A DNA stretch of 64,000 nucleotides, taken from NCBI RefSeq assembly GCF_050920415.1, contig NZ_CP169309.1. One strand, given 5' to 3'. The notes beneath the pieces are model-generated. The model saw nothing but the letters and a program-made list of their open reading frames with translations, was not told where the DNA came from and did no database searches. The position numbers and the translations under genes are program-made. Below, piece by piece: positions 34,575 to 37,293 of the stretch (position 1 is the stretch's first letter; each line of letters opens with the position of its first letter). Source of the DNA: Escherichia coli. Lineage in GTDB: Bacteria; Pseudomonadota; Gammaproteobacteria; Enterobacterales; Enterobacteriaceae.

Positions 34575-35567
34575 TTAACGCTTATCTGCCACCAGTTTGA
34601 GCGCGTGTTCCAGCACGTTAATGTCAGCACCCGCTTTATGGGCATTTTCACTTAAATAACGCCGCCACTGCCGCGCGCCAGGAATACCCTGGAACAGCCC
34701 CAGCATATGCCGGGTAATATGGCCGAGATACGTCCCCTGGCTGAGTTCACGCTCAATGTACGGATACATGGCACGCACCACCGCCACCGGATCGGCATCG
34801 GTATCCGAGGAACCAAAAATCTCTCGGTCTACCGCCGCCAGAATACCCGGATTCTGATACGCCTCGCGCCCTACCATCACGCCATCCATATGTTGCAAAT
34901 GCGCTTTAGCCTCTTCCAGCGACTTGATACCACCGTTAATCGACATCGTCAGATGCGGAAAGTCACGCTTCAGTTGATACACACGCGGATAATCGAGCGG
35001 CGGGATTTCACGGTTTTCTTTCGGGCTTAACCCAGAAAGCCAGGCTTTACGTGCGTGGATGATGAACATCTCACACTCGCCTTTGCCGGAAACGGTGTTG
35101 ATGAAATCGCAGAGAAATTCATAGCTGTCCTGGTCATCGATGCCAATACGCGTTTTCACCGTCACCGGAATCGATACGACATCGCGCATCGCTTTCACGC
35201 AGTCGGCAACCAGCTGCGCATTGCCCATCAGGCACGCACCAAACATGCCGTTCTGTACCCGGTCAGACGGGCAGCCGACATTCAGGTTGATCTCATCATA
35301 TCCGCGCGTTTCTGCCAGCTTCGCACACTGCGCCAGCGCCGCCGGATCGCTACCGCCCAGTTGCAACGCTACCGGATGTTCTTCTTCACTGTACGCCAGG
35401 TAATCACCTTTACCGTGAATAATCGCCCCTGTGGTCACCATTTCTGTATACAGCAACGTATTGCGGGAAAGCAGACGCAGGAAATAACGGCAGTGTCTGT
35501 CCGTCCAGTCGAGCATTGGTGCAACGCTAAACCGACCACTCCAGTGAACGTCAGTTTTTTCAGGCAT
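34575..35567 (-). CDS. dusA: tRNA-dihydrouridine synthase A
   Basis: Product from [29 protein letters not shown] (330 aa); in-frame ATGs up to 35618 are alternative starts. Confidence 0.9.
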
Positions 35568-35972
35568 TGCGCTGGTTTGGTTGATTTTTTGCATTTCAGA
35601 ATTACCGTGCATTTTCAAATGTAGAGATTATTTTAACGATATATCATGGAGTTATGTTATTCAGCATCACTGTTCAGGAGGCTCAATAGCGGGGTACTAT
35701 ACCATAACAACAGGAAGCGCCTGGCTCTTTGAAAAAGAAAAATGAGATTCCTTCAAAGCGTGACGCTCTCGCGAATTGAAGAAATAATCTTATTAGATGT
35801 TAGCGTGTGAAAAGCAATGATAAACAATTCAGTTTCGACGATAAATAAAAAATCACACATAAAACCGTGTTGAACTATCTCGCGGCGAATGGCATTGATA
35901 GATAAAAAAGAACCCAAGCAATGTTGGGTTCTTTTATGTAAAAAATCCCATACTACAGAGAAAATTCACATT

Positions 35973-36977
35973 TTATTTTTTTAACACAATATCGAATAGG
36001 TCATAAATGAACTTAATAATATCTTCGTTAATGAGATCGTTGTCATTTATATCTTTGTCATTCATATCTTTGCCAATTACAATGGGTCCCGTTGAGTCTG
36101 GGTCAAATGATTGAACGAATTTAATTAACGTCTCACCTGCAGTCTGCATTTTTGTAATGTCTGTGATGTCTTTATTGTCTTCTTCAGCCTTCTTTTTCCT
36201 CTCATTCAGAATTAAATTAAAATCCAGTTCATTTTTATCTACTAATTCTTTCATATCCCTCAGGCTTTTTTTCATCACTTGACGAGATAATATTTTTATC
36301 TTACTTGTTATGTGGTTTTCACAATAATCATTAACTCTTCGTGCTGTTGCTATGATATCAGCTGATGCACTACCATATGAGAATGAAAGTAAAAGGGAAG
36401 CCAAGGGTTTTAAGCGAGCATCGTTCTTTGCTTTATATGCATTTTCCAAATTTAAAAAACCTTCGCTTACAGTTTTTAGATGTAATGACGCTACAGGTAC
36501 TTTACCATAGGGTTTATCATAAAATAGCTGAATTGCGGAGGGAAGGTCATTCTGATTTATTACATCGAAAGTACACCTGTCTATTAGAGTTGCATCGCTA
36601 TTTTCCATTGGATTACAAACAAAATCCATCGCATAATGAAAAATCGCCCGTTCTACAAATGCAGAAATATAGTCACGATCACCTAATTGCTCATTAGTGC
36701 ACTCTACAATACACTCGTCAACCCAATCTTTGAGAGCATTTATTCGTCCAATTAAGGAAACATTCTTTTCACTTGCAGTCCATAAATTATGGGTAATCCT
36801 CTGAATAAACAAATCTATTTTTGCAATAATCGCAGCGCGATTACTCATCGTTGCATAATCAACCGATTTATTATACAGATCCTTAAGTTTTCCCGAGCTT
36901 ACATCTTTATTATCGTATTGATTTGAGTTGAGGCTTTTATTAAAGTAATCTCTTGAACTTCCTATTATACTTGACAT
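35973..36977 (-). CDS. Hypothetical protein, AT-rich orphan (K-12 yjbL/yjbM position)
   Basis: 334-aa uninterrupted ORF; strongly AT-rich versus neighbours; Lys/Asp/Asn-rich; no recognisable motif. Confidence 0.6.
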
Positions 36978-37293
36978 AATTTATCCACCTTTTTACCGAG
37001 CTGTATCATTCATATAATTCATTTGACAAAAAGTCACTATCAAAAATCGCTCATAATTTCTGATCTGTAGGCATACTTTCAAACGCATTTAAATAAATAG
37101 CGAGTTAACTTCAAGCAATGTATTTAAAAATGGAGTAATAATTATTGTCATGTTGATAATGGTGTCACCTGGCTATACAACACCTTACCTATGAAACAGA
37201 AAATCAACATTACAACAACAATAAGGGTTCTCGGTGTTTTTCCTGGAACATGGTAAAGTAAGGACATTCTTAACCCACACCTTGAGGTGCCCG

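Follow-up and report, generated by a model that had tools for sequence, protein, structure and literature searches.

An intact and rare DUF2713 allele in an AT-rich cassette between dusA and zur of Escherichia coli

The gene between dusA and zur

The DNA analyzed here, which we call the window, is a stretch of 64,000 nucleotides from Escherichia coli (NCBI RefSeq assembly GCF_050920415.1, contig NZ_CP169309.1). Between the core genes dusA and zur it carries an open reading frame (ORF) of 334 codons on the minus strand (35973–36977), uninterrupted from its ATG start and encoding 334 amino acids (aa). A block of ~1.7 kb of AT-rich DNA separates the two core genes, with spacers of 360 bp between the ORF and the dusA start (35612) and of 316 bp between the ORF and the zur start (37294). 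Along the window, GC content is 0.30–0.37 over this block (~35600–37250) and ~0.50–0.57 on both flanks. The coding sequence (CDS) has a GC content of 0.335 in a host of ~0.52, and its GC content at third codon positions (GC3) is 0.287; GC3 lies at 0.41–0.72 in the other 39 genes of the window, apart from yjcF (0.325) and a gene of the SopA family (0.287). Thus, an earlier sequence-only reading, which had noticed a single uninterrupted minus-strand ORF in an AT-rich block, is borne out by the ORF itself and by sliding GC content, which falls far below the window average here. When the same 1005 bases were shuffled, none of 2000 shuffles held an open frame of at least 334 codons; the longest frame averaged 72 codons and reached 157 at most, so that chance in AT-rich DNA does not account for the ORF.

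The ORF is a genuine protein-coding gene, an intact and rare allele of an E. coli-restricted DUF2713 gene. Its product matches the Pfam family DUF2713 (PF10897) with E = 2.5e-52 and 178 bits, residues 85–305 aligning with model positions 2–221 of 235. It is also 100% identical to RefSeq protein WP_000094901.1, a "DUF2713 family protein" from E. coli MFDS1022581; the chromosome of that strain is 100% identical to the queried 1701-bp region (35600–37300). The gene was already known, since an identical protein stands in RefSeq and the frameshift in K-12 is annotated; the label of orphan, which had been given to it, is therefore wrong. DUF2713, an uncharacterized family, is the sole family match, so that no homology to a well-characterized family emerged.

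At the same position in K-12, the PGAP annotation reads "DUF2713 domain-containing protein, frameshifted." The K-12 frames of 84 aa and 246 aa correspond to yjbL and yjbM, which the sequence-only reading had rightly placed at this locus, and alignment traces the split to the loss of one A, by which a run of eight (A8) became a run of seven (A7). Intact alleles of the K-12 type read CGTAAAAAAAATG, and K-12 reads CGTAAAAAAATG. At the equivalent position in the window (36756–36776, minus strand) the sequence is GTGAAAAGAATG, in which the run is interrupted. The A8 tract lies within the CDS of the K-12-type alleles, and EC0885 has A7 like K-12; the tract is a slippage-prone site that may repeatedly switch the gene off.

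The window gene and yjbL/yjbM share their DUF2713 family, their position between dusA and zur, their orientation, their promoter position, their Shine–Dalgarno sequence, and their terminator. By synteny they are orthologous: dusA and zur flank the gene in both genomes, and the noncoding flanks and terminator can be aligned. They differ in that the K-12 gene is split by the A8-to-A7 change, whereas the window copy is intact. They differ far more in sequence. Compared with K-12-type alleles, the window allele is only ~47% identical in protein and 66% in nucleotides, it lacks one 10-residue N-terminal repeat unit, and it has a 15-residue Asp/Asn-rich insertion (residues 307–321). Synonymous divergence (dS) from K-12 is ~0.8, as against 0.07–0.15 in the flanking genes, well beyond what is expected of alleles within a species. 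The true intact counterparts of the K-12 gene are the alleles of 328–338 aa with the A8 run. Thus, the window gene is not the intact ancestral reading frame of yjbL/yjbM, as had been proposed, and represents another, deeply diverged haplotype. More generally, K-12 is a poor reference for this gene, being a slippage-inactivated copy of one among several haplotypes that differ by >50% in protein.

The product is acidic, with a pI of 5.3, and is predicted to be soluble. Its commonest residues are D, I, K, L, N, and S, and it holds no transmembrane segment (maximum Kyte–Doolittle mean over 19 residues, 1.32). The earlier description as Lys/Asp/Asn-rich and free of transmembrane segments is thus accurate as far as it goes, with Ile, Leu, and Ser to be added. 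Constraint is strongest in residues 41–70, where the ratio of nonsynonymous to synonymous polymorphism (pN/pS) falls to 0.12; the most conserved coding stretch, residues 50–66 (36780–36830, minus strand), has low pN and contains K53, D55, and W66. When 1.84 billion representatives were searched exhaustively with a profile, 54 proteins came up, for the most part pieces of the E. coli gene and in a few cases full-length remote relatives. The latter (P0146, P0147, P0152, P0153, P0169, and P0170), at 19–27% identity, keep the length and motifs, and K53, D55, W66, L98, and F113 are invariant in all remote homologs. A third protein search, with the remote homologs as queries, added none. Two distant DUF2713 paralogs, P0146 and P0171 (397 and 408 aa), lie on E. 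coli contigs with IS110 and a group II intron. On both contigs, a gene of 311 aa follows ~1.5 kb downstream, with a SopD2-like N terminus and PipB/PipB2-like pentapeptide repeats, all of which score below curated cut-offs.

Structure prediction with AlphaFold2 on 18 close alleles gave a model with a predicted local distance difference test (pLDDT) score of 57.5 and no Foldseek match in the PDB at E ≤ 0.001, and it was set aside. A second model, for which the remote homologs were added, reached a pLDDT of 73.8 and a predicted template modeling (pTM) score of 0.74. In it, residues 1–42 are predicted to be disordered (pLDDT ~30) and are followed by helices, a three-stranded sheet (135–166), and long helices. 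Foldseek against AFDB50 found only DUF2713 proteins for this second model. The PDB, searched by sequence profile, yielded nothing beyond helical bundles designed de novo (E > 0.4), and NCBIfam gave only HrpE (E = 0.086, 13 bits against a cut-off of 90), a spurious match. PADLOC gave no family at E ≤ 1, tblastn against 50,697 phage genomes found no relative, and no nuclease, nucleoside triphosphatase (NTPase), TIR, or SIR2-like motif was found in the window protein. Among the PHROGs, phrog_29005 and phrog_28007 match, which are yjbM- and yjbL-like entries with no function assigned; they would appear to stem from over-extended prophage calls. A UniProt-derived listing of YjbL in the "response regulator family" (PMC12871917) finds no profile to support it in NCBIfam or Pfam. 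In agreement with the sequence-only reading, which could assign no motif, NCBIfam, Pfam, structure prediction, and Foldseek together yielded DUF2713 and no fold relative. The models weakly suggest a soluble acidic protein with a disordered, polar N terminus of 42 residues, an alpha-rich body, and no recognizable catalytic motif.

Origin of the block and the dusA 5′ end

In Nissle 1917 and ST131, our samples of B2-type E. coli, the gene is absent and zur follows 152 bp after dusA. E. albertii, E. whittamii, and three further species representatives of Escherichia likewise have a compact, gene-free junction (148–191 bp). When 100,044 species representatives were scanned for DUF2713 peptide patterns, no locus was confirmed, and the plasmid search gave two weak matches only, both in records that are really chromosomes. 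Because the gene is missing from B2-type E. coli and from other Escherichia, and because no locus appears among the species representatives, we take the compact junction to be ancestral and the block to have been gained. Relative to the ancestral sequence, a nonhomologous segment (35525–37226) replaces 133 bp. Horizontal acquisition, which had been proposed from composition, is thus supported by the low GC content together with the compact junction of B2-type E. coli and sister species. By the same token the gene qualifies as xenogeneic, given a GC content of 0.335 against ~0.52 and its absence from B2-type E. coli and other Escherichia. The AT-rich block had, however, been treated as one unit. 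It is AT-rich throughout but not uniform: in 35525–35710 a conserved sequence has taken the place of the dusA 5′ end, and the variable cassette proper is confined to 35711–37226.

The first of these parts (35525–35710, minus strand) comprises the first 29 codons of dusA, up to 35612, and the region upstream of them, and both are of the type supplied by elements with a dusA-specific integrase. It is 96–100% conserved among cassette-bearing strains. Homology to ancestral dusA breaks at 35524/35525, at dusA codon 29–30 in the APMLDW motif. This break lies inside a 27-bp sequence, TCGAGCATTGGTGCAACGCTAAACCGA (35509–35535, plus strand), which recurs without change as attL and attR of the phage remnant that strain 121 carries in dusA. 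Indeed, the same 27 bp form direct repeats at both ends of the dusA-integrated remnant in strain 121 and in O157:H7. In these two strains the annotation places the displaced 5′ fragment of dusA immediately ahead of the DUF2713 gene, and the distance from dusA to the start of the integrase is 89 bp in strain 121. The strains carry in dusA a degraded prophage that has, beside dusA, three DUF1076 (NleG-type) genes as well as DinI and an integrase. Of the genomes sampled, about 13% now harbor an element in dusA.

The DusA proteins tell of the same replacement. The long N terminus of the window and K-12 proteins resembles the type supplied by the element, MHDNHEAQKINQTSVMPEKTGVYWNSRFSV. The short native N terminus, M..ES.T.YPAYRFSI, is that of B2-type E. 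coli, other Escherichia, Citrobacter, Klebsiella, and Kluyvera. Elements with a dusA-specific integrase are known to replace the dusA 5′ end with their own copy (Farrugia et al. 2015, PMC4482086). There is thus good support, from sequence comparison, for reading 35525–35710 as the scar of such an element.

Only two of the 5426 complete E. coli genomes in our census, HH97 and HH45, combine the new dusA 5′ end with the lack of a cassette. The HH97 junction (L003, 2514–2731) joins CATAACAA to ATATGCGACCAGGCAATAC and reproduces the ancestral spacer. These junctions suggest either the state before insertion or a precise loss. A simple secondary deletion in HH97 is unlikely, since the junction matches the ancestral spacer ATATGCGACCAGGCAAT and not the CCTGGCT repeat that flanks the cassette. 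This 7-bp direct repeat lies near the two cassette ends (35720–35726 and 37168–37174); CCTGGCT occurs six times on the plus strand and five times on the minus strand of the 64 kb, so that the repeat at the ends may be due to chance. In other Enterobacteriaceae the dusA–zur junction holds other genes: in Salmonella arizonae, a gene resembling an alcohol dehydrogenase and one resembling an outer-membrane protein; in Leclercia, what appear on inspection to be a RelE/HigB-type toxin and a helix-turn-helix antitoxin, together with the outer-membrane-protein-like gene seen in S. arizonae; and in Escherichia sp. MOD1-EC7003, an ORF of 178 aa.

Haplotypes, expression signals, and a proposed history

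A CDS homolog is detectable in 4270 of the 5426 genomes. Few of these resemble the window allele closely: identity to it is at least 95% in 18 genomes, 80–90% in 208, and 60–80% in 4044. The A7 tract is widespread, with at least 869 genomes identical to K-12 across 90 nt and 1160 more matching at 95–99%; six sampled rows of the latter span exactly 90 nt, with no indel, and are also A7. These counts come from a 90-nt query, as queries of 36–37 nt returned nothing, presumably because a low-complexity filter masks the run. By these matches, the split form is present in at least 16%, and probably about 37%, of complete genomes.

We estimated synonymous (dS) and nonsynonymous (dN) divergence by the Nei–Gojobori method for eight intact alleles (28 pairs). 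Between the major haplotype groups, dS is 0.49–0.84 and dN 0.23–0.40, for a dN/dS of 0.39–0.60. Between the window and its nearest haplotype, KFu014, the values are 0.17, 0.11, and 0.65, and within the K-12-like group they are 0.04–0.13, 0.03–0.07, and 0.37–0.84. By comparison, the same strains show dS of 0.02–0.15, dN ≤0.003, and dN/dS ≤0.06 in dusA, and dS of 0.03–0.11, dN ≤0.008, and dN/dS ≤0.08 in zur. The ratio is below 1 in all 28 DUF2713 pairs, and the ORF is open in all eight intact alleles despite dS of up to 0.84. The synonymous divergence of the cassette approaches the level seen between E. coli and Salmonella.

This divergence is confined to a hypervariable, AT-rich cassette (35711–37226), delimited by identity profiles and empty-site alignments, which comprises the gene and its own noncoding flanks. 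Identity to other haplotypes falls sharply at 35711 and recovers at 37227: it is 0.78–0.87 in the noncoding parts and 0.66–0.89 in the CDS, and 0.96–1.00 just outside. Some alleles are mosaic, KFu014 and 2022N21 being ~100% identical in both flanks, including the first ~25 codons, and 60–73% identical in the gene body. In the disordered N terminus (around residues 24–30), a 10-residue repeat (DA.KDKLDN..) is present in zero, one, or two copies among alleles; the window allele has none. The sequence comparisons indicate that the gene is under real but weak purifying selection and persists as old, recombining haplotypes that are often lost. A cassette of 1.5 kb with such divergence, set between core genes that differ by 2–3%, offers a clean natural case for the study of balancing selection or of repeated allelic replacement. 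The window copies of dusA (34575–35612) and zur (37294–37809) show dS of 0.07–0.15 against seven strains, which is more than in most comparisons among those seven (0.02–0.12); either the strain or this chromosomal segment derives from a divergent lineage.

Upstream of the gene, a Shine–Dalgarno sequence, AGGTGG (36985–36990, minus strand), ends 7 nt before the ATG as read from the sequence. A consensus scan gives a putative sigma-70-like promoter, GTGACA-16-AATAAT (37141–37168, minus strand; 10 of 12 matches), which in alignment takes the position of the K-12 yjbLM promoter, TTGTCG-18-AATAAT, listed in PMC3946193. The region holds eight promoter-like sites against 7.8 expected from shuffles, and hence no excess. 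Downstream, an intrinsic terminator with a 12-bp stem followed by a T run (35906–35935, minus strand) is kept in K-12. A subthreshold Rfam match to the small RNA STnc370 (35901–35966, minus strand; 30 bits against a gathering score of 54, E = 0.15) is probably no more than this terminator hairpin, which it overlaps. An ORF of 54 aa (35753–35917, minus strand) was considered as a partner gene and rejected: its TTG start falls within the terminator hairpin, and the equivalent K-12 frame has 41 aa and another end.

Panyukov and Ozoline (2013, PMC3661553) count the zur/yjbL intergenic region of K-12 among their 78 promoter islands; it is bound by H-NS in all compiled chromatin immunoprecipitation (ChIP) studies and is classed as foreign by three predictors (PMC3661553, Table 1). 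The upstream spacer of the window is ~80% identical to that of K-12. For the silencing by H-NS that had been supposed from composition, the K-12 ChIP data thus support binding at zur/yjbL, within the K-12 haplotype. By analogy, we infer that the window gene has its own sigma-70 promoter in an H-NS-bound island and is normally silent.

Our best overall explanation, which we consider probable, is that an intact, rare DUF2713 allele lies in an acquired AT-rich cassette beside an integrase scar. An element with a dusA-specific integrase would have replaced the native dusA 5′ end in an ancestor of non-B2 E. coli. The cassette (35711–37226) would have been gained either as the last cargo of that element or by a separate insertion at the same spot. 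Within E. coli it exists in recombining haplotypes that have diverged deeply and that purifying selection constrains weakly, the K-12 copy being inactivated by the A8-to-A7 frameshift. If the K-12 literature carries over, the gene would be read from its own sigma-70 promoter and silenced within an H-NS-bound promoter island.

A number of observations weigh against this explanation or parts of it. The window has no integrase ORF between dusA and zur, and blastn with a word size of 7 found no remnant of attR or of the displaced ancestral dusA 5′ end in 35400–37400. The dusA 5′ replacement is conserved while the cassette is hypervariable, and in HH97 and HH45 the scar joins an ancestral-looking spacer. 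For these reasons, scar and cassette may have separate histories. The gene is also dispensable, because its dN/dS of ~0.5 is high, because at least 869 and probably ~2000 of the 4270 carriers are frameshifted, and because ~1150 genomes (about 21%) are without it. In addition, H-NS binding at the promoter island was shown for the K-12 haplotype, the better structural model was built on only 20 sequences, and what can be said of DUF2713 function is drawn from sequence.

Possible roles of the product and comparison with known systems

The N-terminal core is conserved while the rest evolves fast, the gene is often lost, and its haplotypes are old, a pattern that weakly suggests a product acting on a fast-evolving outside partner. 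In the published record, a nonfixed yjbM mutation in lactate evolution had a 1% growth effect (PMC2784333), and yjbL is listed in a colistin transposon-sequencing study (PMC9687012). If a single guess has to be named, it would be a secreted or translocated effector-like protein, although we think this guess unlikely to be right. Some other cellular role has nearly an even chance. A broader reading is improbable as a complete account: that DUF2713, a family present in E. coli and on mobile elements, acts on an outside partner as either a type III-secreted effector or a single-gene anti-phage protein, that balancing or frequency-dependent selection maintains it in E. coli as ancient, recombining haplotypes, and that an element integrating into dusA seeded it. 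Should the protein prove to be an effector or a defense factor, it would define a family without a detected fold relative.

One alternative is that the gene is decaying junk of foreign origin, without function ever since it arrived or since its mobile element decayed. It would persist because H-NS silences it and it costs nothing, and its diversity would reflect neutral drift plus recombination. A dN/dS of 0.4–0.65, or 10–50 times that of dusA and zur, would fit such a gene, as would a frameshift allele in at least 16% and probably ~37% of complete genomes and absence without replacement from ~21%. Keio yjbL deletion strains serve as neutral tagging sites (PMC9859026), and no family, fold, or motif match beyond DUF2713 was found. 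Against this stands the frame itself, which is open over 318–340 codons at dS of 0.5–0.84 in every non-K-12-type allele examined, as compared with the mean of 72 codons in shuffles. A ratio below 1 in all 28 pairs, the pN/pS of down to 0.12 in residues 41–70, and the retention of length, motifs, and five invariant residues by homologs only 19–27% identical also speak for selection. We therefore regard the loss of all function as an unlikely account of the gene.

If the product does have a function, it might be a substrate of type III secretion, an effector of the C-island type like EspX4 and EspX5, delivered by the system of the locus of enterocyte effacement (LEE) or by E. coli type III secretion system 2 (ETT2), with an N-terminal signal and a body that diversifies against host targets. 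The modeled disorder of residues 1–42 would suit a secretion signal. So would the 11 Ser, Thr, Asn, or Gln residues among the first 25, the highest count of 42 window proteins (mean 5.2, standard deviation 1.8) and one paralleled by 8–12 in the remote homologs, but this polarity is in part a by-product of AT-rich codons. The SopD2-/PipB-like gene of 311 aa that lies ~1.5 kb downstream on the P0146 and P0171 contigs points the same way; those are, however, two related contigs, and the neighbor falls below curated cut-offs. Likewise, the only other deep AT troughs of the window, of similar GC3, are yjcF and the SopA-family gene, and the dusA-integrated phage remnants of O157-type strains carry NleG-type (DUF1076) genes beside the integrase. 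Each of these arguments is circumstantial. Homology to an effector family is missing (HrpE in NCBIfam at 13 bits against 90, only DUF2713 in Pfam, and no fold match), and none of the adjacent genes is for a chaperone or for secretion. Many strains in which no type III system works carry the gene intact, whereas some Shiga toxin-producing E. coli probably have it frameshifted, and E. albertii, which to our knowledge always carries the LEE, lacks the gene at this locus. On balance, a type III substrate seems unlikely. Less likely again, and in our view quite improbable, is a single-gene protein of anti-phage defense or superinfection exclusion, left behind by a prophage-like element and diversified in an arms race. 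A cytoplasmic product that needs no secretion machinery would fit the wide spread in commensal strains, the locus is a hotspot of phage and island integration (the ~13% of sampled genomes with an element in dusA), and old haplotypes, mosaic recombination, and frequent loss are typical of defense genes. Yet there is no PADLOC match, no nuclease, NTPase, TIR, or SIR2-like motif, no fold match, and no relative in the 50,697 phage genomes; moreover, the locus varies by allele, whereas defense hotspots usually vary by gene content.

Comparison with known systems places the intact DUF2713 allele and its cassette in several contexts. Within the window, yjcF (14959–16251, plus strand) encodes a pentapeptide-repeat protein and forms a single-gene AT trough (GC 0.335, GC3 0.325). 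The SopA-family gene (45014–46594, minus strand) is intact, encodes 526 aa, and occupies the yjbI position between ubiC and malM (GC 0.32, GC3 0.287). The pdeC region (21000–23000), at a GC content of 0.43–0.45, is moderately below its surroundings. Gene order suggests that yjcF corresponds to EspX5 (ECs5048), and by its position the SopA-family gene is probably EspX4 (ECs5021). Both genes are largely restricted to E. coli and often degraded in K-12. Like DUF2713, the two islets are single AT-rich genes with a GC3 of 0.29–0.33 within the same 64 kb; unlike them, DUF2713 has no pentapeptide repeats and no similarity in sequence or fold, and its likeness to an effector would be one of analogy. 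EspX5 and EspX4 are non-LEE effectors of the backbone, or C-island, type in O157 (PMC5931665).

The pattern of variation calls to mind another class of locus. The flagellin gene fliC is a hypervariable single-locus gene with conserved ends. DUF2713 differs from fliC in that its product has no signal peptide or surface location, but it would share with fliC-like hypervariable loci a conserved 5′ part, a diverged remainder, mosaic alleles, and sharp boundaries.

Finally, the locus can be set beside the islands of dusA-specific integrase elements (DAI islands). It departs from them in that neither an integrase nor attR nor the displaced native 5′ end is present and only 1.7 kb is left. As in the islands, the native dusA 5′ end is replaced from the att core onward, by sequence ~85–90% identical to that of the extant element in strain 121 and O157:H7. 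Read in this way, the locus would be a compact example of how most E. coli had the 5′ end of a core gene for tRNA modification permanently rewritten by a dusA-targeting element.

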